A DNA stretch of 64,000 bases. Origin: a virus. Of the stretch, positions 24,403-45,658 are shown in pieces (position 1 is the first letter of the stretch; every line of letters begins with the position of its first letter). The position numbers and the translations under genes are program-made. The stretch lies in IMG/VR virus record IMGVR_UViG_3300033978_000724, positions 33,032 to 97,031 of that record; one strand, given 5' to 3'. The notes under the pieces were generated by a model. That model did not search any database. It had not been told where the DNA came from and saw only the letters and a program-made list of their open reading frames with translations.

Positions 24403-24481
24403 TGTTTCTTGTTATTAAAAACTGTTTTTTATTCTAGCAGATTGAATCGCAATTACGATATTTATGGTAAAATATTTATAT

Positions 24482-24553
24482 AAAAATTCCCCTCGCTGGT
24501 TGGTACTGGAATACCGGGACCACAGGGGATGTAACCTAAATGGAGAGGTCACA
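24482..24553 (+). promoter_or_regulatory. Conserved structured leader L1
   Basis: One of four covarying copies; extended -10 TGGTAAAAT immediately upstream. Confidence 0.8.
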
Positions 24554-25183
24554 ATGAGTAATTTATCATATCAAGGAAACAGTATAACCCAAAGAGATGG
24601 CGACGGGTATGTCAACGCTACCCAAATGGCAAAAGCTAATGATGCAAGGTTTGACAACTGGATCGCAACCGAAAATGCTAAGGAATACCTGAAAGCCTTG
24701 CAGGAGTCTGATCTCCTGGAAATTCAGGAAAACAATAAAACCCTTATTGTTGTAGAGTCCAAAGGTTTTCCTGCTATTAAAACTATGTGGGTTCATCCTC
24801 TCGTTGCGATAGCCTTCGCTCAGTGGATTAGTCCAAGGTTTCATGTTTGGTGTAACCAGCATATTAAGACGTTACTAGAAACAGGTAAAACCACAACAGG
24901 CAAGTTTAAGCACAATCTTGAATGGTATGACCGCCTACTTTACTACAAAGCTAGGACAAAAATAGAAGTTGGTTATTTCTCAATCTTTGAAGAATTAAAC
25001 AATTCAATCATCAGCGAATTAGAACACTCTGGTTATACCTTGCCACTAGGTTCTGTCCCTGATATTAGCGTTGGACAATGTTTTTGTAATTACCTCAGAA
25101 GTATTGGCTATAACCTAGAGAAAATAACCAAACTTTATACTCATTATTATCCTGATGGACGGGTTATTTGCCAAGTTATCTAG
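24554..25183 (+). CDS. KilA-N protein with BstA-like C-terminal domain (C-terminus apparently truncated)
   Basis: DGYVNATQMAKA..WVHPLVAIAFAQWISPRF (KilA-N); GYFSIFEE..PDISVG..HYYPD; GAGAGG RBS supports start 24554. Confidence 0.8.
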   Translation: MSNLSYQGNSITQRDGDGYVNATQMAKANDARFDNWIATENAKEYLKALQESDLLEIQENNKTLIVVESKGFPAIKTMWVHPLVAIAFAQWISPRFHVWCNQHIKTLLETGKTTTGKFKHNLEWYDRLLYYKARTKIEVGYFSIFEELNNSIISELEHSGYTLPLGSVPDISVGQCFCNYLRSIGYNLEKITKLYTHYYPDGRVICQVI

Positions 25184-25262
25184 GGCGGTCGCAATCTTAG
25201 CATTTCAACCCGGTGGAGTAGAAATATTTGGGCAAAAGTACGAGGCGAAGCTAACAAAATAA

Positions 25263-25335
25263 TGCGTCTTACTGGAATCGAACCAGCCTTAAGGTGAATT
25301 ATGAGTTCACTGCCTCCCCAATCGGCCAAAAACGC
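25263..25335 (-). tRNA. tRNA with CAT anticodon (Ile2 or Met), CCA not encoded
   Basis: Acceptor GCGTTTT/AAGACGC, D stem GCC/GGC, anticodon arm GTGAA-CTCATAA-TTCAC, T arm GCTGG-TTCGATT-CCAGT, discriminator A; TATAAT at 25346-25351. Confidence 0.88.
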
Positions 25336-25356
25336 TAATGAGATTATTATACCTTG

Positions 25357-25824
25357 TTACGCCACATCTCTCAAATAAATCAGCAACCCATAATGAGCAA
25401 TACATAAAGCATCTGCCATGCCATCATGTTGCTTCCTACATCTTGGTAAAATCAAATTAACCTGCGGATAACGTCTGGTACAGAAATCTATCGCCGCATC
25501 TTTATCTTTAGCCGTACCACTCAATACCGATCCTTTCCACTTCTGAGGTGTTACTAATTCTAACGGTATTCCCGCTCCCATCACCGCACCTAACACCATG
25601 CCGTAACCTTTGCCAAAAGAAAAAGTAGAAGCGACTCCCTGTCCTGGCATAGAATGAACCTGCTCTGATATTACTAACTCAACTTTATGACTTCTTAATG
25701 TCTCAATCAACGCCGAAACATTAATATCTTTACCAGAAATAGGAATAGGATAAGTAAACGCCTTATTGCCATCTATAATAGCTATTCCACCCTTCAAACC
25801 TGGATCAATTCCACATATAATCAT
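25357..25824 (-). CDS. RuvC-like Holliday junction resolvase
   Basis: GIDPGLKGGIA, EQVHSMPGQGVASTFSFG, PQKWK, DGMADALCIA. Confidence 0.9.
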   Translation of the reverse strand: MIICGIDPGLKGGIAIIDGNKAFTYPIPISGKDINVSALIETLRSHKVELVISEQVHSMPGQGVASTFSFGKGYGMVLGAVMGAGIPLELVTPQKWKGSVLSGTAKDKDAAIDFCTRRYPQVNLILPRCRKQHDGMADALCIAHYGLLIYLRDVA

Positions 25825-25859
25825 AGATATATTTTAACTAATTAATTTCTATAATTATA

Positions 25860-27329
25860 ATGCAGAAATCTTCACGATCAACAAAAGAACTATTAACGCC
25901 ATTAACTACCGCATCAGCTACCAGGTTTTTAAAGAATAAAATAAAATCATCTGATACTAAAGAGAAATTATCATGGGTAGATTTTGCTAAGAAATGCCAG
26001 ATACGGTCGGGGCGTGAGTTAATACCATTCACCCCGTATGATTGGCAGGAGCAGTTTTTAGAACAAATAGAAAAACATTCTGGTATCGTTTTATGCAAAT
26101 CAAGGCAATTAGGAGCCACAGAATTTATTGGCAACTGGTTATTATGGCAGGCATCAAACGATCCTGGTTTCGTTGCAGTGGTATTCTCCAAAACTCAATC
26201 AGACTCTAGTGACATCGCCAAGCGAGTAAGAGATATGATTGTCACCTATCCTGACTTAGCATTTGAAACTAACAACCAAAAAGATTTAAAATTATTGAAT
26301 GGTGGCAGGATTATCTTTAAAGCATCAACACCTAACGCCGCCCGTGGTATTCCTTCGGTGGCAGTAGTAGTATTTGATGAATGTGCTTTTGTGGAAGGGG
26401 TAGAAACGATATACGCATCAGCACAGCCCGCTACTTCTATGTTAGGTGATAAAGCTAAGACAATATTAATGAGTACCCCAAATGGTCAACAAGGTTTCTA
26501 TTGGGAGATGTTACGAGAGGGGAACGAATCAGAAGAAATATTAAATATTTGCCGAGGCATCAGGACAGGAGAATTACCACCTGTCCTGTATTGGTCTGAC
26601 AATCATTGGTGCAAGTTTTTTGTACACTGGAAATCTCACCCGGTTTATGCCTCTGATGAGAATTACTTACAGAAAGTGAAGGACAGGCAGAAATTAACCG
26701 ACGCTCAATTACAGAGAGAATATGACCTAAACTTTGAGGAAGCAGTAAACGCACTCTATCCACAGGAATTAGTATTAAGAGGTGCTAGAGGCGTATTCCA
26801 GAACGCTATGCAAGGTAGAAAATACATAGCCGGCATTGATCCGGCATTTGGTGGTTCTGATTATTTCTGCTTGACTATTTGGGATGTTAGTTTTAATCCA
26901 TACCAATTAGTCAGGATGTACCGAGAGAATAATAAGAGTAAGGATTATAACTTAGTGAACACGGTACAGATATTAAGTCAATATCGCCCGTCTGTTGTGG
27001 GGGTGGAAAGTAATTCAGGCGGGCGGTTAATACTTGAGGATTTAATAAACAAGATGCCATGGTGCAAGATTGAGGCTGTGAACACCACTGAATCATCTAA
27101 GATTGTCGCCACGGATAGATTATTATTACTATTGGAGCGTGATCAGGTGATCTACCCGGATTGTGAGTTAAAATCTGAACTACTCAACTTTAGGGAATCA
27201 ATCAATGGTACCAGGAGAAAAAGAGAGGCAATAGCTGGTCATGATGATACTGTCATGAGTTCTGCTATTGCCTTTAGTGTGTTCTCTATTCCTTTCTTTG
27301 ATGCTGGAATAGGAACGGTTAGATACTAA
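25860..27329 (+). CDS. Terminase large subunit
   Basis: KSRQLGAT Walker A variant, VVFDE Walker B, STPNG, GIDPA, HDDTVMS nuclease motifs. Confidence 0.93.
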   Translation: MQKSSRSTKELLTPLTTASATRFLKNKIKSSDTKEKLSWVDFAKKCQIRSGRELIPFTPYDWQEQFLEQIEKHSGIVLCKSRQLGATEFIGNWLLWQASNDPGFVAVVFSKTQSDSSDIAKRVRDMIVTYPDLAFETNNQKDLKLLNGGRIIFKASTPNAARGIPSVAVVVFDECAFVEGVETIYASAQPATSMLGDKAKTILMSTPNGQQGFYWEMLREGNESEEILNICRGIRTGELPPVLYWSDNHWCKFFVHWKSHPVYASDENYLQKVKDRQKLTDAQLQREYDLNFEEAVNALYPQELVLRGARGVFQNAMQGRKYIAGIDPAFGGSDYFCLTIWDVSFNPYQLVRMYRENNKSKDYNLVNTVQILSQYRPSVVGVESNSGGRLILEDLINKMPWCKIEAVNTTESSKIVATDRLLLLLERDQVIYPDCELKSELLNFRESINGTRRKREAIAGHDDTVMSSAIAFSVFSIPFFDAGIGTVRY

Positions 27330-27383
27330 ACGAATCTCTCAGGATAGGCTCTCTTTGCTTGCTCCAAAGAGAAAAGTTTTATC

Positions 27384-27605
27384 CTATTTGGTTAAATTGA
27401 CTCCGTTTAAACCGTTCACTACCATGTTGCTTAGTTCTTTTAGCACAATACAACTAAGCTCCGCCTCTGACGAAGAGGCTATTATTTTTTTTGTCATTTC
27501 CTCGTCTTGTAAAAACTGTGAAACCATTTCCTTCTTTTCTTCAAAGGTAAGGCAATGCTCCTCACATATATTTTCGTAAGCTATTTTTAATTGCTGTCTA
27601 TCCAT
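27384..27605 (-). CDS. Hypothetical protein
   Basis: GAGGG RBS; last gene of a leftward cluster. Confidence 0.6.
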   Translation of the reverse strand: MDRQQLKIAYENICEEHCLTFEEKKEMVSQFLQDEEMTKKIIASSSEAELSCIVLKELSNMVVNGLNGVNLTK

Positions 27606-27622
27606 TTTTCCCTCTTTGTTGG

Positions 27623-27790
27623 TTATTTGGTTAACTCTTTTAGCTCCTGATGGAGCCTCTGGTTTTTCTGCCTAAGACTGGTCACGGTCTTAAACAGGGC
27701 TTCGTTTTCTTTCAGGAGTCGCCTGACTGACTCTTCTAGCTCATCTCGTGTCATTTCTGACAACGGAATAGGCGCACCTGGTTTATTCAT
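27623..27790 (-). CDS. Small coiled-coil protein, 55 aa (not in ORF track)
   Basis: MNKPGAPIPLSEMTRDELEESVRRLLKENEALFKTVTSLRQKNQRLHQELKELTK; start overlaps upstream stop and fills the gap. Confidence 0.7.
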   Translation of the reverse strand: MNKPGAPIPLSEMTRDELEESVRRLLKENEALFKTVTSLRQKNQRLHQELKELTK

Positions 27791-28004
27791 GTGGTTCTAC
27801 CACTGAAATATACTTCTCTCCTTTTACATAGCGAAACTTTAAAAACCCGTCTCTAATTGCTTCGTCTAAATCCTGGCGAATAGTACAATCTACTGACCTG
27901 GTTCCTAGTTGGGATACAATATTCACCCATGCCATCTCTTTATGGACCGACTTACTTATTAATTGTTTTATTTTCTCTAGCATTGTTTGTTGATTTTCTA
28001 TCAT
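27783..28004 (-). CDS. Hypothetical protein
   Basis: AAGGAG RBS upstream. Confidence 0.65.
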   Translation of the reverse strand: MIENQQTMLEKIKQLISKSVHKEMAWVNIVSQLGTRSVDCTIRQDLDEAIRDGFLKFRYVKGEKYISVVEPHE

Positions 28005-28052
28005 CGTTTTTCTCCTTTTATTTTTAGTTTATCGTCGTTTCGGACGGGACTA

Positions 28053-28556
28053 TTAAAATACTACTTCGGGGTCTAATAACACCTGTTGGGATAAGTCTCT
28101 GTGATGATAGATGAAGTATTGCACGTCTCTAGGTAATAAGTTGTTTTCTATTGCGTTGGTTGTCCAACCGATATTTTTCCTGAGGATGTCAATCACCCAA
28201 GATAATTGACCGGCTGTCCCCCATATCCCTAACTTTCTACAAACATCTGCTTTCTGTCTAGCAGTGCCGGCCATGAATATTTGATGGGCTAAGTTAGCCG
28301 CCCGGACTCTCTCCGGGGTAACTACGGGATTTTCAGTCTCTAGTTTCTCTATTTCTTTATTAATAGCGTTCAACAAATAACCAAACACATCAGCATAATA
28401 CTTGGCGGTTGTGGCTACCTGAGTGTTTTCTGGATTGGCTTTAGCTACGGGTTCGTTATATCTAGTCATTTCTAACAATAAACTAACAATTCTAGTTTTG
28501 TTGTTATATTTTTTTGCTACTTTTAGCTGGGCCAATAATACTTTTAAGTTTTTCAT
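28053..28556 (-). CDS. Hypothetical protein
   Basis: Start MKNLKV follows a leader shared with gene 30219-30545. Confidence 0.7.
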   Translation of the reverse strand: MKNLKVLLAQLKVAKKYNNKTRIVSLLLEMTRYNEPVAKANPENTQVATTAKYYADVFGYLLNAINKEIEKLETENPVVTPERVRAANLAHQIFMAGTARQKADVCRKLGIWGTAGQLSWVIDILRKNIGWTTNAIENNLLPRDVQYFIYHHRDLSQQVLLDPEVVF

Positions 28557-28754
28557 TTTATTTTCCTCTCCCTTAAGCCGGAGTCGCTTTTCATTTGTTT
28601 CTATATTTTTATAATACACGGTTATCTGTATTTTAACCAGATAGACCTATATAAATTATTTATACCCTTCAATGAAAATCCACTATTTCACTTATCATTT
28701 AAAACATAGATAACCGTGCTAACCTGAGAATCATATATATAAAGGATAAAAACA

Positions 28755-28985
28755 ATGGTAACTAGAAACCCCAAAGGCAGTCCCGCCACTTTGACCTCAT
28801 TCAAAGTAGAAGGACCATTAATCATCCCAGGCGACAGATTGTCTAAAAAGATGACTGCGATCCGACTCCAGCAAAAGGTAGAAGACGCTTTAAACAAAAT
28901 CCCACCCAAAGAACGGCCCGCTTTTCTCAGAAAATGTATCACCGAAGCATTAGTCACAAGTGGACTTCTTGATCTGCCTGACTAA
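28755..28985 (+). CDS. Small RHH-like DNA-binding protein
   Basis: TAIRLQQKVEDALNKIP..RPAFLRKCITEAL; AAAGGA RBS; divergent promoters share an operator-like motif. Confidence 0.65.
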   Translation: MVTRNPKGSPATLTSFKVEGPLIIPGDRLSKKMTAIRLQQKVEDALNKIPPKERPAFLRKCITEALVTSGLLDLPD

Positions 28986-29090
28986 GAATAATTACTTAAT
29001 CACCTGGACTAATTTAAAAATAATCATGGGCCGTTATGGTCCTTTTTTGTTTGCCAACCCCAAAATACCTGAGATAAATTAGTCAAAAGT

Positions 29091-29330
29091 CAATTTTCAT
29101 TCGCCTCTGTGGTGGTCTGGTGTGATTCATGCCAGGTATAGATTACACGCATGACAAAAAGTGTATTTTGCTAAAACAACTTAAAATGTAACGAAATGTA
29201 ACGCTAACGGAAAAGGTTGATCGTAGCCGTCGGTATTTGTTGCGAACGCATATCATTCACGCAGGTAGCGAATCGCTAAAAGTCTATCCTAGTATTGATT
29301 ACAGAGATGACAGAATTTGCTTTATAATAT
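29091..29330 (-). repeat. Dispersed ~240-bp non-coding element, copy B (inverted relative to A)
   Basis: Shared blocks TATTATAAAGCA, TTCTGTCATC, TTTAGCGAT, TGCGTGAATGA, TTCGCAAC, AATACCGACGGCTA, AAATACACTTTTTGTCA, GGCGAATGAAA at the same spacing. Confidence 0.9.
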
Positions 29331-29372
29331 AATAAGAACATCTGCAATGAATAAATAATCATTCCTTGGTAA

Positions 29373-29840
29373 ATGTATATCAATCTAAAAATACAAAAAG
29401 TCCACCCGCTGGCGAAGTGTCCAAAATATGCCCATGAGTTTGATGCTGGCATGGACTTGTTTTCTGTGGAAGAAAAAATATTAGGGCCGGGCGAGAGTGG
29501 ATTGATCGGGACCGGGTTAAAAATTGCTTTACCAAAATACACCGAAGCACAAATTAGACCTCGGAGCGGGTTGGCTTTAAATCATCAGATAACGGTGTTA
29601 AACAGCCCTGGGACGATTGATTCTGGTTATCGTGGGGAAATAGGCGTTATTCTGATTAATCACGGTTTAAGCCCGTTTAAAGTTGAGGTAGGGATGAAAA
29701 TAGCACAGATGGTATTGGCTTCTGTGCTAAGAGGTCGAATATTGGTTGTGAGCGAGTTGGATGATACTAGCCGGGGGAGGGTGGTTTTGGGTCTAGTGGG
29801 ATTTAGCGAAAAGAAAACCGCCAGGTTAAGGCGGCGATGA
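29373..29840 (+). CDS. dut: dUTPase (motif 5 shifted out of frame)
   Basis: AGMDL, PRSGLA, GTIDSGYRGEI, KIAQMV; RGEGGFGSSGI is recovered only with one extra G at 29773-29777. Confidence 0.92.
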   Translation: MYINLKIQKVHPLAKCPKYAHEFDAGMDLFSVEEKILGPGESGLIGTGLKIALPKYTEAQIRPRSGLALNHQITVLNSPGTIDSGYRGEIGVILINHGLSPFKVEVGMKIAQMVLASVLRGRILVVSELDDTSRGRVVLGLVGFSEKKTARLRRR

Positions 29841-29842
29841 TG

Positions 29843-30154
29843 TCAATCATGGTACATGGGGTCAAATAAGTATTTTTCTACTTCAAAAAGTATTGCATCC
29901 CTATTCTGATTAAATTCTTCGTTAGGTATTTTTCGCCATCTTTCGGCGGAGCAATTAAAGTCAGGTGGTTCCCCATCACCCACTGCATTACTTCCCCAAT
30001 AGCAGACAATATTAATTTGAGTATTCTTAGGGAATTGATTTATCTCTAATTCATAAAACGCATCAGGATTGCACTCGTTTTCTCCTGTTAGTTTTATTAC
30101 TTCAGAGGTAAACGGAATCTTTTTGCCGTCTGGCGTTGTGTAATGTTTAATCAT
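29843..30154 (-). CDS. Hypothetical protein
   Basis: ACAAAGGACAA leader places the start at 30154 (MIKHYTT). Confidence 0.65.
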   Translation of the reverse strand: MIKHYTTPDGKKIPFTSEVIKLTGENECNPDAFYELEINQFPKNTQINIVCYWGSNAVGDGEPPDFNCSAERWRKIPNEEFNQNRDAILFEVEKYLFDPMYHD

Positions 30155-30218
30155 TGTTTTTGTCCTTTGTTTATGTGTGTATTTTAAGCCTTTTATACTC
30201 ATGCTTGGGAGTTGAGAT

Positions 30219-30545
30219 TTAAAATTCTACAGCGGGGTCAAGATAAACCCCATTAAAAAACTTATCTTGATTGAAAGGCGTTTCATTTGGGATGTCTCTA
30301 ACCTGTCTAGGCTCTTTTGTATCCTTAGCACCTAAACTAGATGCCATCGAATATTTGCCGTCGGGGTAAACCATCTCATATTCATCTCTGTAACTAGGCT
30401 CAATTCTTCTTGTGATTAATTCATTTGTCGCCAAACATTTAATGGTGACGGTTTTGGCGGTCCGTTTAATAACGGAATAAGCGAATACATGATCACTTAC
30501 TATAGATAAAGAATAATAAACAGTACCAACTTCAAACTTAATCAT
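30219..30545 (-). CDS. Hypothetical phage protein
   Basis: MIKFEVG..VIKRTAKTVTI pattern; GAGG RBS. Confidence 0.7.
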   Translation of the reverse strand: MIKFEVGTVYYSLSIVSDHVFAYSVIKRTAKTVTIKCLATNELITRRIEPSYRDEYEMVYPDGKYSMASSLGAKDTKEPRQVRDIPNETPFNQDKFFNGVYLDPAVEF

Positions 30546-30597
30546 TTTATCTTTCCTCTCCCTTAAGCCGGAGTCGCTAAACTTGTTTCAATAAAAC

Positions 30598-30642
30598 CAA
30601 TATAAATCAATACTTTTGAATTGTCAATACTTATTCAAAAGA
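30598..30642 (-). promoter_or_regulatory. Sigma70-type promoter with shared 22-bp core, copy 2
   Basis: TTGACA and TATATT boxes on the minus strand; 22 bp identical to 22051-22072. Confidence 0.75.
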
Positions 30643-30763
30643 TTTTTACAAACCCACGAAAACAATAGATCATAGCCGGCTGGACCAGATACCGGCCCGG
30701 CTTGTAGCGTGTTACTATTAGTCCAACTCATGATATAATATTAAAAACAAAGGACGATATATT

Positions 30764-31072
30764 ATGAGAAAACCTAAGCAACATTCCCATAGTACAAAAT
30801 ATAGAGATTATATCCAGTCAGATAGATGGCGGGCGTTAAGAGTAAAAACATTCAGCATGACCAATAATCGGTGCGTAGGATGCGGGGATAAATGCACCGA
30901 GTGTCATCATTTAAGTTATGACAACCTAGGAAAGGAAAGGATCGGCATAGACATTGTGCCTCTTTGTTCCAAGTGTCATAAGAAATGTCACTACAAGAAA
31001 TATTGGGATAACAAGAAAAACCGGGCGATAATGTCAGACCAGCTAACAAAGAAATTTAGATTGATGTCATGA
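30764..31072 (+). CDS. HNH endonuclease
   Basis: YIQSDRW..CVGC..HHLSY..LCSKCHKKCH. Confidence 0.88.
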   Translation: MRKPKQHSHSTKYRDYIQSDRWRALRVKTFSMTNNRCVGCGDKCTECHHLSYDNLGKERIGIDIVPLCSKCHKKCHYKKYWDNKKNRAIMSDQLTKKFRLMS

Positions 31073-31675
31073 CCCCCGAACTCTTGATCCAAAATACTGC
31101 ACAGAACATTTACAATTCGCCCGGCATGAACAGGCAACGGTCGGCAAAGGTAGTTCACCAATCCGCTTTAACCCCGCCGAAGCATAACTCAAGCATTCCC
31201 CACAATTCCGATCCGTTGCCCCTAATTTCCTCATCATGTACACCAAGTCAGATTCTTTAGCGTTGGCTTGTTTCATCGTTTCACCGGCCAACCTTGACCT
31301 CTCAGTATAAAGTTTAGTCCTAGCTTTTAATTGTGCCGGCGATACCGTGCCATTTTTAATCTCTACCGCCATCTGATGTAAATATTTATATTCAGACTTT
31401 AAATCACGCCCAATACTTAACCAGTCTTCAGGGGTAGCGATATTCTTACCACCCCTAGAGATCAACGCCCGCTTTACATGGAGTGTTTTTAATTCCTTGG
31501 CAAATTCCTTTTCCCACTTCTGGAGTGAAATACGGTTAGCGATCAAATCGTCGTTGAGAATATCAATGCGATGATTAGTGGAGGAAGTAATAGTTTTCTC
31601 ACTTTTCTCGATAGTTGCTGGTGGTATAAATTTTCCATTATTCTTATATTTCCCGTATAGTTTGCTGAATTGCAT
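31067..31675 (-). CDS. Minor head/head morphogenesis protein (gp7/F-like)
   Basis: C-terminal CGEC..LPLP..CSCRANCKC; EYKYLHQMA helix. Confidence 0.65.
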   Translation of the reverse strand: MQFSKLYGKYKNNGKFIPPATIEKSEKTITSSTNHRIDILNDDLIANRISLQKWEKEFAKELKTLHVKRALISRGGKNIATPEDWLSIGRDLKSEYKYLHQMAVEIKNGTVSPAQLKARTKLYTERSRLAGETMKQANAKESDLVYMMRKLGATDRNCGECLSYASAGLKRIGELPLPTVACSCRANCKCSVQYFGSRVRGS

Positions 31676-31820
31676 TAGTGATTCCTTTTAGTTCCTTTGG
31701 TAATTCTTTTTCTAATTCTTTAGCGATGTTATTTACTTCACTTTGGGAGATAGTAGCCATTGCTAATAAGTCTGATTCGTCTAGTAAGTCATCTGTGATA
31801 ATAATAAGTTTTTCTGCCAT
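31644..31820 (-). CDS. Small hypothetical protein, 58 aa (not in ORF track)
   Basis: MAEKLIIITDDLLDESDLLAMATISQSEVNNIAKELEKELPKELKGITNAIQQTIREI; TGGTAAAAT promoter upstream. Confidence 0.6.
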   Translation of the reverse strand: MAEKLIIITDDLLDESDLLAMATISQSEVNNIAKELEKELPKELKGITNAIQQTIREI

Positions 31821-31930
31821 GTTTTTTATAATAAATAATATTTATTTTACCACAAATAAAAACACCTATCACTCGCCGATAGGTGTTTGTTCAAAGGTAA
31901 AAACAACAAGAAATTAACCTTAGAATTATA

Positions 31931-32140
31931 TCACATTTCTAGTTTTTCTTGATTTAGATACCACTTAAAAGCATCTTGTGCAATCCGGTTAGGTGTTTCA
32001 TGCCGGTTCTTTGATGCTATTTTTAACCGTTTATAAACGTCATCTCTGATCGTGATCCGGCGGCGGATCGAGTCTTTTTCTTCTGGTTCGGGTGATTCGA
32101 TTGGTTCGGCTGTGAGATATTCTGTGGGTTCTTCTGTCAT
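31931..32140 (-). CDS. Ribbon-helix-helix-like regulator
   Basis: RRRITIRDDVYKRLKIAS..TPNRIAQDAFKWYL. Confidence 0.7.
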   Translation of the reverse strand: MTEEPTEYLTAEPIESPEPEEKDSIRRRITIRDDVYKRLKIASKNRHETPNRIAQDAFKWYLNQEKLEM

Positions 32141-32250
32141 ATTTTTTAATGATAAAGCCTGGAGTGACCCAGGTGTCTAACTGTTAGGAATGTACCTATT
32201 TTAACATGATGTGTTATTATTCTTTGAGATATAGATGCTACGAGGCGACA

Positions 32251-32284
32251 AAACCAACCTAGTTTCCATGGTTGGTTTCTTTTT
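32251..32284. terminator. Intrinsic terminator
   Basis: AAACCAACC..GGTTGGTTT then CTTTTT, at the end of the BRO gene. Confidence 0.6.
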
Positions 32285-32286
32285 GT

Positions 32287-33063
32287 TTAGTTGAGTAATT
32301 TCAAATCAAATAAATTACCTGATAGTTGCACCTGTAATAGTTCGCTTAATATCCCTATTGCTCTGGGGTCTTTTTTCTTTAGATAGGTATAGAGATGATT
32401 AATCTTATAGGTAAACTCCATCCATTTCCTAAACTCAGCCAACAAACAATCTTGATAAATAAAAGCATCTCGAACCCCTCGCTGGTCGGGATAATGATGT
32501 TTATATTTCATCCTGAGTTTCTCGACGTGAGGGTATTTACTTTCAACATAATCAGACCATCTTTTACCAGCAGAAATATCTATTCCTGAATTATCTGGCA
32601 TGACATAACCTGCTGATTCAAAATCAGAAATCAAAGTATGACTTAATTCTCCAAAGATGGAAAAATAACCGGGCGGGATTTTAGAACGCTCTTTGAACAT
32701 CTGGTATCTATCAAACCATACTATGTTTTTTCGGCCGCCTGAGTTATATTGTCCAGTTTTACGGATAGCGGGTAATACTTCTTCAAATACCCATCGCTGA
32801 AAATCTTTAGCTATTGATTTTCGGCTGGTGAATATCAAAGCATAAAGTCCAGCTTCTGTAACTGTTACCATCTTTTGGTTTCCACCAAGGGTATAGATAC
32901 TAGCTACACCCTTTTGATAGTCGTCTAATCGTTTAATTGCGTCGCTTGCGTTTTGGATACCTAGAATATTACAAACATCTTGAGCCACCCACTCAGGCTT
33001 ATCAGGTGTCCCTACGAATCGCACATCTTGACCATCAAACCGGAATACTGATAAATTACTCAT
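32287..33063 (-). CDS. BRO-N protein with BstA-like C-terminal domain
   Basis: F-x-F-DGQDVR..PEWVAQDVC..EAGLYALIFTSRK..FQRWVFEEVLPAIRKTG (BRO-N); GYFSIFGE..DISAG..HHYPD..LAEFRKW..YL. Confidence 0.88.
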   Translation of the reverse strand: MSNLSVFRFDGQDVRFVGTPDKPEWVAQDVCNILGIQNASDAIKRLDDYQKGVASIYTLGGNQKMVTVTEAGLYALIFTSRKSIAKDFQRWVFEEVLPAIRKTGQYNSGGRKNIVWFDRYQMFKERSKIPPGYFSIFGELSHTLISDFESAGYVMPDNSGIDISAGKRWSDYVESKYPHVEKLRMKYKHHYPDQRGVRDAFIYQDCLLAEFRKWMEFTYKINHLYTYLKKKDPRAIGILSELLQVQLSGNLFDLKLLN

Positions 33064-33133
33064 GTGACCTCTCACTTAGGTTACTTCCCCTGCGGTCCCG
33101 ATGTTGATAGCATCAACCGGCGAGGGGATTTTT
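33064..33133 (-). promoter_or_regulatory. Conserved structured leader L2
   Basis: Covarying copy; TGATATAAT extended -10 upstream. Confidence 0.8.
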
Positions 33134-33472
33134 ACTACTTAATTATATCATAAAATATCGCTCTGGCGGTTTATTTTGTAGGTTCCTATGAATCTATAAA
33201 AGTATTTGTGGACCAATTGGAGACATCTTTTTTTGGTACGGGTTTAGTTTATGGTTTGGCGTGGGTTTGGTTTGGTTGGTGCTGATAGGTTTAATTGGTA
33301 CTTATAATGACAAATCATCCTTCATCAAACCAAAGGGTTGACATTTCAACGAAACACAGTATAATTATCGGTATAATCATTTTTCGTTCACATCTCGAAA
33401 AAAATGATTATATAAAAACAGGAAAGAATTTCCGTCCTTTCCTTTGCATTTAATAAAATTGTTGAGAATATT

Positions 33473-34009
33473 ATGACAGAAATATGTGTACAAGTCAATG
33501 GTGACAACCCATGGCAGGTTATTGATTCAAAAGAGTTTCAACTTCTTAAATACAATAAAACGATGGAATCGTTAACTCATGTCTTTGTAGGGTTTTTAGG
33601 TGGAGAATGGTATGACAGATTAAAAGATGGTCGTTATGCTATCCATCCGCTTGTTATTACTCTGTGGCAATCTTCTTTGGTGGCGAAGCAAAACAAAGCG
33701 ACCCCTTATTCTGTTTACATAATGGAAAGAGAAGATAAATATATAAAGATAGGTGTAGCAATAAATGTAGATGACAGAAAAAAAACAATAGAAAGAGCTT
33801 CTGGTTTGGAATTAACTGTGGCATACAGTACGCAGCCTGTATCCAAGAAAATTGCTTACAAGATAGAGAGTATATTCAAGAGGCTATATAAATGCAAACA
33901 ATTAAAAGGCGAATGGTTTGCATTAACATCTCATGATGCTATTCCTCTCTTAAAACAAATAAAACAAGATGTTGAAGACGCTGAGAATCCACTGGATTTG
34001 ATTTACTGA
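33473..34009 (+). CDS. GIY-YIG / T5orf172-like domain protein
   Basis: VYIM..IKIGVA....R..IE..GEWF. Confidence 0.8.
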   Translation: MTEICVQVNGDNPWQVIDSKEFQLLKYNKTMESLTHVFVGFLGGEWYDRLKDGRYAIHPLVITLWQSSLVAKQNKATPYSVYIMEREDKYIKIGVAINVDDRKKTIERASGLELTVAYSTQPVSKKIAYKIESIFKRLYKCKQLKGEWFALTSHDAIPLLKQIKQDVEDAENPLDLIY

Positions 34010-35219: not shown

Positions 35220-35238
35220 CAGAATTATTTTATTAATT

Positions 35239-35275
35239 AAAAACCAGGATTACTTAATTAGTGGTCCTGGTTTTT
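35239..35275. terminator. Bidirectional terminator
   Basis: AAAAACCAGGATTACT..AGTGGTCCTGGTTTTT between convergent genes. Confidence 0.8.
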
Positions 35276-35282
35276 ATATTAA

Positions 35283-35750
35283 TTATTTAGACCAATCGGA
35301 ATAACTATCTATTCCCCTAAATCTCTCATCACCATCCATCAATAAGTTTAATTCCGCATAGTTTTCTAGTATCTCATTCATCCTTTCAAACGGGTTTAAA
35401 CCTTTCTTTATTTCACCGTCATTCAATAGGACAAATATATTAACATTGCACCAACGATGGAAAGCTGGACTAATCCATTGAGCTAACAAAATAGCAATCT
35501 CAGGATGTCCCCAGCTTCCCTGTAATTCTGGACGACCACCTTTTGTTATTTCGACTAATCCCGTTGCGGGAATTCCCGTATCGGCTGTCATCTCTCGGAT
35601 GTAGGCTTTAGTTTGTTTTAATCGGAGAAAATCATTTAACTTTTTACCCGTGGCATTACACATATTAGTCAGGTTAACGAATCCATCGTTACGCCGTCCC
35701 TGAATCATCTTGCCATTGTACGAAGCGGACACAATACTGCTATTATTCAT
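35283..35750 (-). CDS. KilA-N domain protein
   Basis: DGFVNLTNMC..KKLNDFLRL..QGSWGHPEIAILLAQWISPAF. Confidence 0.9.
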   Translation of the reverse strand: MNNSSIVSASYNGKMIQGRRNDGFVNLTNMCNATGKKLNDFLRLKQTKAYIREMTADTGIPATGLVEITKGGRPELQGSWGHPEIAILLAQWISPAFHRWCNVNIFVLLNDGEIKKGLNPFERMNEILENYAELNLLMDGDERFRGIDSYSDWSK

Positions 35751-35813
35751 TTAGTTGACCTCTAACTAGGTTTACTCATCCCCTGGACATTTCGAGTGTC
35801 GCAGGGATTTTTA
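35751..35813 (-). promoter_or_regulatory. Conserved structured leader L3 (short form)
   Basis: AAAAATCCCTG-C-GACA-CTCGAAA-TGTC-CAGGGGAT..ACCT-AGTTAG-AGGT; TGTTATGAT promoter. Confidence 0.75.
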
Positions 35814-44872: not shown

Positions 44873-45517
44873 TTAAATTAAGAACCTCAAAGCCTCTTTA
44901 TGGGTATGACCAGCTTTTCTCATGGCGTTGTATATCGCTTCGGATCGATTCATTTTGCTTATTTCATCCGCTGAATATTCATTAATGCTGATGATTGGTA
45001 ATCCACTTGACTCTTTGAACTCATTAATTTTTCTGCCATATTCCCAATCCTTAGAACAACCATCTTGCTGTAACCAGAAAGTTAATAATGGGTGAAAACG
45101 CTCTCTATGTATTTGACGTTCTCTTAAAAAGTTTTGCCGGTCTTCTTCCGTGAATTTAACGTGAAAAGCGTCACAAAATAATTGATGCCATCCTAAATCA
45201 TTTAAGTCACGAACTAAGTCCATTGCTTTTTGGTTGCCAGAAAAAGCTAACTCAACTATCAATCGGGACCAACTTTCTAACGGAATAATATTGACAGCTT
45301 TTTGATTAAAAGGGGTTTTCCATTGTTCAAACTCAATGGATGTCTGAGAAACCTTTGCTAGTAGTCGCTTGAGGTCTCTTGACGCTGTATTCCTGGATGT
45401 CTCGAAAATATCTGCGTACTGGGGAACTGCCACACCAAAACGACAACCTTCGGCCATCAATCCTTCTATCGTGTGCGTCCCGACTTTAACCGTAGCAATT
45501 TGTGCTTTAATACTCAT
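44873..45517 (-). CDS. Phage regulatory protein, KilA-N/P63C-associated-like N-terminal domain
   Basis: KAQIATVKVG..IEGLM..ASRDLKRLL..GNQKA..LFCDAF; GAGGA RBS in leader L4. Confidence 0.6.
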   Translation of the reverse strand: MSIKAQIATVKVGTHTIEGLMAEGCRFGVAVPQYADIFETSRNTASRDLKRLLAKVSQTSIEFEQWKTPFNQKAVNIIPLESWSRLIVELAFSGNQKAMDLVRDLNDLGWHQLFCDAFHVKFTEEDRQNFLRERQIHRERFHPLLTFWLQQDGCSKDWEYGRKINEFKESSGLPIISINEYSADEISKMNRSEAIYNAMRKAGHTHKEALRFLI

Positions 45518-45587
45518 GTGTCCTCTTACTTAGGATACTCCCCTTAAGGCCCCGGTATTTCCAGTACCAACCTGTGAAGGGGTTTTT
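45518..45587 (-). promoter_or_regulatory. Conserved structured leader L4
   Basis: Covarying copy; TGTTATAAT extended -10 upstream. Confidence 0.8.
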
Positions 45588-45658
45588 GCATGAATAATTA
45601 TAACATAAAAACCGCCTGGGCGATATACACCCAGACGGTAAAAGAGGTTTAAAACTTA

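Follow-up and report, generated by a model that had tools for sequence, protein, structure and literature searches.

Two genes in a 97,031-bp virus record (IMG/VR record IMGVR_UViG_3300033978_000724) encode proteins with unrelated N-terminal DNA-binding domains and a common C-terminal domain. They raise the question of whether these proteins belong to the family of BstA, a protein which localises to replicating phage DNA and blocks replication (Owen et al. 2021, PMC8585504), and what such a pair might do in this phage. The window, meaning the whole stretch of DNA analysed, is 64,000 nucleotides long and corresponds to bases 33032-97031 of the record, which has a 127-bp terminal repeat; GC content in the window is ~38%. 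A first-pass annotation had pointed to a resemblance of the common domain to BstA, and had proposed a modular family with swapped N-terminal domains whose conserved leader could be an analogue of aba, the self-immunity element of bstA. It also suggested a profile comparison with BstA as a check. The two open reading frames (ORFs), whose N- and C-terminal domains are called heads and tails below, are as follows.

24554-25183, plus strand: ORF A, 209 aa, KilA-N head and BstA_C tail, truncated allele (Pfam KilA-N, E 1.7e-22; BstA by PADLOC and PHROG)
32287-33063, minus strand: ORF B, 258 aa, Bro-N head and BstA_C tail, intact (Pfam Bro-N, E 6.2e-20; PADLOC BstA; PHROG 6287)

The C-terminal halves of the two proteins aligned with 31% identity over 176 columns (BLASTP, E 5e-26), and the motifs that had been quoted for them, W(Y/F)DR, KI..GYFSIF.E, DIS(V/A)G and H.YPD, all fall within this alignment. 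The leaders and first codons are likewise shared, as the first-pass annotation had noticed: the ~90-nt leader (-90 to +15) is 79% identical in DNA, and the first 15 bases of the two ORFs are the same. Identity is 59.5% in the C-domain, ~52% in the unrelated N-domain and 49% further upstream. The position of the Shine-Dalgarno sequence supports the start codons that had been chosen for both ORFs; the longer ORFs proposed by some gene callers, with starts at 24464 and 33075, begin within a promoter-like TGnTAnnAT box or within the leader. Such upstream starts are frequent for both proteins in public gene calls (239/287-aa and 262-aa forms), so that lengths in the databases are inflated.

By sequence comparison, the shared domain is a homologue of the C-terminal domain of BstA, which covers residues ~156-307 of the BstA protein of Salmonella phage BTP1 (PMC8585504). 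The BstA model of PADLOC matched ORF B over residues 105-232 (E 6e-21), ORF A over residues 123-201 (E 1.9e-10), and the full-length allele of ORF A described below at E 5e-21. PHROG 6287, annotated as BstA replication inhibitor, was matched with E 3.7e-25 and 2.9e-20, over the tail in the case of ORF B and over head and tail in that of ORF A. Direct BLASTP against BTP1 BstA gave E 6e-14 for ORF B and 1e-15 for the full-length allele of ORF A, at 30-34% identity. The resemblance proposed by the first-pass annotation was thus well founded, and the profile comparison it had suggested gave a clear match, since a profile of 146 family members aligned to BTP1 BstA with a probability of 100% and E 2e-39 (hhalign). 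The invariant residues of the tail, D162 and Y203 of the Bro-N copy among them, are maintained across these 146 diverse sequences.

The family is a large one. A phmmer search over 1.84 billion representatives returned 310 clusters at E <= 0.001, and all of the 129 members that were sampled from these clusters and aligned match the PADLOC BstA model. In tblastn against phage records, the tail of ORF B found 17 records, including bstA (st313-td) of BTP1, which adjoins the cI repressor gene of that phage. A homologue is also present in a cultured phage, as gp062 of Aphanizomenon phage vB_AphaS-CL131 (MG209611; tblastn, 32% identity over 92% of the query; hhalign, E 2e-35). Close relatives of both genes carry PF26567 (BstA_C, Pfam 38.1) together with Bro-N or KilA-N in precomputed annotations, a 96%-identical relative of ORF B being labelled PF02498 + PF26567; the assignment of PF26567 here comes from these labels, the Pfam set used on the window proteins having no model for it. 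NCBIfam gave nothing on the window proteins, and a sequence search of solved structures gave no match. We conclude that the proteins are additional members of an already named domain family, BstA_C.

Both tails match BstA, but of the "two BstA-like proteins" announced by the first-pass annotation only one is whole in this genome. The 90%-identity cluster of ORF A has a 257-aa protein as its representative; a 94-kb sister genome and an IMG/VR sister contig carry this protein, and the full-length relatives of ORF A measure 257/254 aa. Compared with the sister contig by blastn, the window is syntenic at 96% up to base 25164, and the match resumes at 25358. What lies between is the following.

25165-25357, no strand assigned: 193-bp replacement segment with a tRNA-Met (25263-25335, minus strand), delimited by the blastn breakpoints against the sister contig; tRNA by ARAGORN and Rfam

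In place of these 193 bp the sister contig has 698 bp, which include the last ~48 codons of the gene and a further stretch. ORF A is therefore truncated because the tRNA-Met cassette replaced its 3′ end. It stops shortly after H.YPD (H.YPDGRV) and lacks three invariant or nearly invariant residues, equivalent to Y203, F211 and Y227 of the Bro-N copy, as well as what structure prediction indicates to be the last beta-strand and a 27-residue helix of the tail. The complete C-terminal domain is present in ORF B and not in ORF A, so that ORF B is the only intact BstA-family protein of the two in this genome. The short allele is a natural variant: it was found on 8-9 contigs, and both forms circulate in lake metagenomes.

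Structure prediction assigned the head of ORF B and left the tail without a relative. In the AlphaFold2 model of ORF B (pLDDT 92.3), the head resembles the Bro-N / APSES / DdrC-N fold group at Z 7.4-8.0 (VIA-align), with Bro-N 4ye7 at Z 7.6 and also DdrC and Mbp1, and Foldseek of the whole model against the PDB matched the head and not the tail. The best match of the tail in the whole-model VIA-align, a Brucella effector at Z 5.1, was within noise and was discarded as a fold relative. Modelled alone (pLDDT 90.9), the tail reached at best Z 4.7 among 48,161 PDB representatives, and nothing below E 0.06 in BFVD. No fold is assigned to the predicted tail, the absence of a match being no proof of a new fold, and the models give no hint as to mechanism.

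The swapping of N-terminal domains proposed by the first-pass annotation holds well beyond this pair. Among the 129 members, the BstA_C tail was found with Bro-N (31), KilA-N (24), Rha (20), AntA (7), ORF6N (5) or P22_AR_N (2) heads, i. e. six kinds family-wide. It is also seen among the close relatives, in which head and tail identities are discordant. Two of them, P0009 and P0010, combine a KilA-N head with a tail of the ORF B type. P0009 shares 87% identity with P0019 in the head but only 38% in the tail, where its closer counterpart is the Bro-N protein P0006, at 92%. P0006 itself has a head 98% identical to that of ORF B on a tail that is 75% identical, and P0006 and P0005 have tails 98% identical and heads 58% identical. 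The downstream joint of the exchange is the linker just ahead of the W(F/Y)DR motif. To judge from these comparisons, recombination at the linker between the two domains has recently reassorted heads and tails. The conserved leader, together with the first five codons, would provide the upstream stretch of homology for such head exchange. On one metagenome contig (L010, 1908-2522) two leader copies stand in tandem, 520 bp apart, before a short KilA-N ORF and then a Bro-N ORF, an arrangement that would favour head exchange by unequal recombination.

We then have to ask what the leader is. It consists of a 5′ hairpin in three segments (P1), the conserved stretch GUAACCU, and a small hairpin (P2) which encloses the Shine-Dalgarno sequence and ends 2-3 nt before the AUG; the match extends into the first codons, and the conserved stretch runs from ~ -75 to +20 relative to the start. 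A hidden Markov model of the leader copies located more of them in metagenome loci, and a covariance model trained on eight leaders added further ones. The copies in the window, and the genes behind the two that do not precede ORF A or ORF B, are listed here.

24483-24575, plus strand: leader copy A, ahead of ORF A (sequence; covariance model, 88.7 bits; extended -10-like TGgTAAAAT just upstream)
33042-33133, minus strand: leader copy B, ahead of ORF B (sequence; covariance model, 104.4 bits; TGaTATAAT just upstream)
35731-35813, minus strand: leader copy C, with a shortened P1 (sequence; fold; covariance model, 22.3 bits, E 0.0023)
45496-45587, minus strand: leader copy D (covariance model, 83.1 bits; sequence)
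35283-35750, minus strand: KilA-N-only gene behind leader C, 155 aa, no BstA_C (Pfam; BLASTP to ORF A, E 3e-23, N-domain only)
44873-45517, minus strand: gene behind leader D, 214 aa, uncharacterised family (29 homologues, none with a Pfam domain)

The 155-aa gene is a paralogue of the head of ORF A. The 214-aa protein had no Pfam, PHROG or PADLOC match; a language-model protein atlas placed it beside BstA_C-bearing clusters, and this candidate relationship was dropped after hhalign (probability 0.1), PADLOC and the annotations of its homologues did not confirm it.

Compensatory double changes were found in 7 of the 21 leader pairs. The proposed structure pairs 96% of the leader cells; sliding the partners by 1-3 columns lowers this to 35-54%, and the covariation observed was reached by 0 of 500 shuffles. 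In P2, copy D contributes a compensatory change from A-U to U-A. At one position 6 of the 8 leader sequences have a U-G pair, which would be an A-C mismatch on the opposite strand, and the copies, present on both genome strands, are always co-oriented with their gene; for these two reasons the structure belongs to the transcript strand. We considered a palindromic DNA operator and rejected it, as both half-sites are altered in copy D of this very phage and some of the pairs are wobble pairs. By its pattern of substitutions, then, the leader is a structured, covarying, sense-strand-specific element of RNA type, present in four copies in this phage and not specific to BstA_C. Rfam 15 had no match to the window at gathering thresholds, and none to the leader at E <= 1 in five loci. 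A TGnTAnnAT box stands ~7-8 nt ahead of each copy, which suggests a putative promoter with P1 at the 5′ end of the mRNA, and each of ORF A and ORF B would form its own small transcription unit. As a 5′ untranslated region, the leader would determine how stable the mRNA is and how accessible its ribosome-binding site. The units that carry a leader have terminator-like hairpins on both sides (33420-33443, minus strand; 32158-32173, minus strand; 35238-35276; ~45610-45640, minus strand), giving a self-contained, moron-like layout. In CL131, a hairpin of P1 type with fully compensated stems (64459-64550, minus strand, of MG209611; 50.9 bits; locus L093) lies directly upstream of gp061, an IS-type OrfB transposase gene which is divergent from gp062.

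These properties bear on the first-pass proposal that the leader is an analogue of aba. The latter is a 63-bp DNA element spanning -29 to +34 of bstA with terminal CCCGCC direct repeats; it is specific to its own BstA variant, needs no transcription, and works only at high copy (PMC8585504). If the leader and first codons were such a DNA-level self-immunity element, its four copies could titrate the proteins off the phage's own replicating DNA, and the position of the leader does resemble that of aba; the presence of four copies would also suit the high copy number that aba requires. Against this, the same leader also precedes genes without BstA_C, namely the KilA-N-only gene, that of the 214-aa protein and, at loci L018 and L016, Bro-N genes with other C-terminal tails. 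Conversely, BstA_C genes exist without it, the covariance model finding no match in L011, L022 and L036, and the sequence upstream of CL131 gp062 being different. Whereas aba elements are variant-specific, the leader is common to proteins with different heads and tails. Its covariation is strand-specific, U-G pairs included, and in 7 loci the start codon is not flanked by any conserved direct repeat, the leader being an inverted-repeat structure. We consider this self-immunity role very improbable, and the proposal is not upheld.

In which biological setting do these proteins act? Phage genes near the two ORFs, recognised by eye from the translations, encode a cytosine methyltransferase, a ParB-like protein, a RuvC-like resolvase, a large terminase, a dUTPase and an HNH protein. 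A gene divergent from ORF B (33473-34009, plus strand) looks by eye to be of the T5orf172 type, a module classically fused to Bro-N/KilA-N heads. The same DNA is present in lake-water metagenomes of many studies. Megablast of 20 kb of the phage against phage records gave no match, and a pattern scan of IMG/VR returned only the sister contig and two chance matches. Among species-representative genomes the leader pattern occurred in only one, on a 7.6-kb phage-like contig binned with a Dolichospermum metagenome-assembled genome. Because of this contig, and because the closest cultured phage with a homologue is the Aphanizomenon phage CL131, the host is most likely a Nostocales cyanobacterium.

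When the 97-kb genome was searched in full for four lysogeny-related families, integrase, serine recombinase, S24-type repressor and ParA, none was found, and the phage is probably a virulent Nostocales cyanophage. CL131 is virulent under laboratory conditions; its gp062 was annotated as an antirepressor and read as a lysogeny remnant, not as BstA-like, and the published tree of large terminases (TerL) places CL131 closest to PaV-LD (PMC6293099). In the published BstA set, by comparison, 79% of members are prophage-associated, typically beside a repressor gene (PMC8585504). The BstA_C tail was found in only 3 of 151 sampled genomes of Nostocaceae, the host family. Since no lysogeny genes were found, CL131 is virulent in culture and the tail is so rare in host-family genomes, the logic of a prophage defending its host, which is that of canonical BstA, is not obviously applicable here.

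We favour, with a probability of roughly 55%, an explanation in which a BstA-family pair with recent head exchange and an RNA leader serves, by homology with BstA, to exclude competitors. From the homology with BTP1 BstA, the variable head would target the protein to DNA and the conserved tail would be the effector that interferes with DNA replication. Exclusion of co-infecting competitor phages during the phage's own infection is most plausibly the role, because the phage has no detectable lysogeny genes. Several points weigh against this explanation. Canonical BstA acts from a prophage, and none of the four lysogeny families was found here. No self-immunity element was identified for this phage. 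Protection of the host is not an evident role, with the tail in so few Nostocaceae genomes. In the PDB no fold relative of the tail could be recognised (best Z 4.7), so nothing independent backs an effector activity, and the promoters are assigned by resemblance of sequence alone. A broader version, in which the BstA_C proteins of virulent Nostocales phages are phage-versus-phage weapons whose range is reset by head swaps, with the leader as both switch and recombination joint and, at its boldest, also sparing the phage's own genome, strikes us as a long shot.

The proteins might instead be ordinary regulators of transcription or replication of the Bro/KilA/Ant type, with BstA_C as a generic partner-binding or oligomerisation module and no part in defence. 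PHROG indeed labels the heads anti-repressor or transcriptional regulator, the CL131 homologue carries an antirepressor annotation, the tail is found with every classical Ant-type head and has no enzyme-like fold match, and one leader common to these and other small putative DNA-binding genes suggests a co-regulated class. Such 'antirepressor' labels derive, however, from homology of the head domain alone. The three BstA proteins that have been studied, which share ~40-48% mutual identity and are the only members with experimental data, all block phage replication (PMC8585504), and the fact that one copy tolerates truncation in nature speaks against a regulatory role that is essential. We regard this alternative as unlikely, if worth keeping in mind. 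A different kind of explanation would see the units as selfish, moron-like cassettes which reshuffle at the shared leader without benefit to the phage, so that their similarity would reflect mobility and not function. They do have an autonomous look, with terminator-like hairpins on either side of copy B and ahead of copy D; the histories of heads and tails are mosaic, one copy has been truncated without loss of the lineage, and in CL131 a P1-like hairpin precedes a transposase gene. Yet residues of the tail are invariant in 146 diverse sequences and changes in the leader are compensatory, both pointing to selection on function, and purely selfish units seem to us to have little chance of being the right account.

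The locus is of interest because BstA belongs to a small group of defence proteins known to be located where phage DNA replicates, and its mechanism is still unsolved. Its tail travels with at least six kinds of DNA-binding heads, and heads are still being exchanged between modules that are nearly identical. Members of the family are carried by virulent-looking cyanophages, including the cultured CL131, where the rationale of a prophage protecting its host does not apply. Natural head-swap pairs and a tail truncation are ready variants for asking which part sets target specificity, and in the annotation of lake cyanophages the uninformative 'antirepressor' label can be replaced. What is less ordinary here is that heads were exchanged recently, that the carrier is a probably virulent cyanophage and that a leader RNA accompanies the genes.

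Compared with known systems, the proteins are closest in plan to BTP1 BstA and its Klebsiella and E. coli homologues, in which a DNA-binding head is likewise followed by the homologous tail (PMC8585504). ORF A shares even the kind of head, KilA-N, and both its domains align to the PHROG BstA profile; it is truncated, however, and the head of ORF B is Bro-N instead. The BTP1 gene belongs to a lambdoid prophage and adjoins the cI repressor gene, whereas here the gene is not beside a cI repressor and the genome is that of a 97-kb cyanophage in which the searches revealed no lysogeny genes. We found no aba-like element bounded by terminal direct repeats, the host phylum is Cyanobacteriota as opposed to Pseudomonadota, and the present proteins are known from sequence alone. 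CL131 gp062 is similar in joining Bro-N to BstA_C in a cultured cyanophage of a Nostocales host; it differs by a divergent tail subtype, with GYWCVLHE instead of GYFSIF.E, and by another long hairpin in its own upstream region. The database entries PF26567 BstA_C, PADLOC PDLC02356 and PHROG 6287 agree with the present assignment through the tags of relatives and through model matches, but are labels only. The leader recalls the promoter-early stem-loop (PeSL) cassettes of T4-type phages, reportedly described by Arbiol, Comeau and Krisch in 2010, in that a promoter and stem-loop are repeated before several accessory genes and could mediate modular shuffling; the leader described here is longer, with a single-stranded stretch that is conserved and a Shine-Dalgarno hairpin, and is restricted to one gene class. 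Finally, shuffling of KilA-N and Bro-N heads in regulators of DNA viruses is said to have been described by Iyer, Koonin and Aravind in 2002, in a paper that PMC8585504 cites. The likeness lies in interchangeable N-terminal DNA-binding modules on a set of C-terminal ones, and the difference in that the exchange seen here is between close genomes, in which modules 87-98% identical occur in different combinations.

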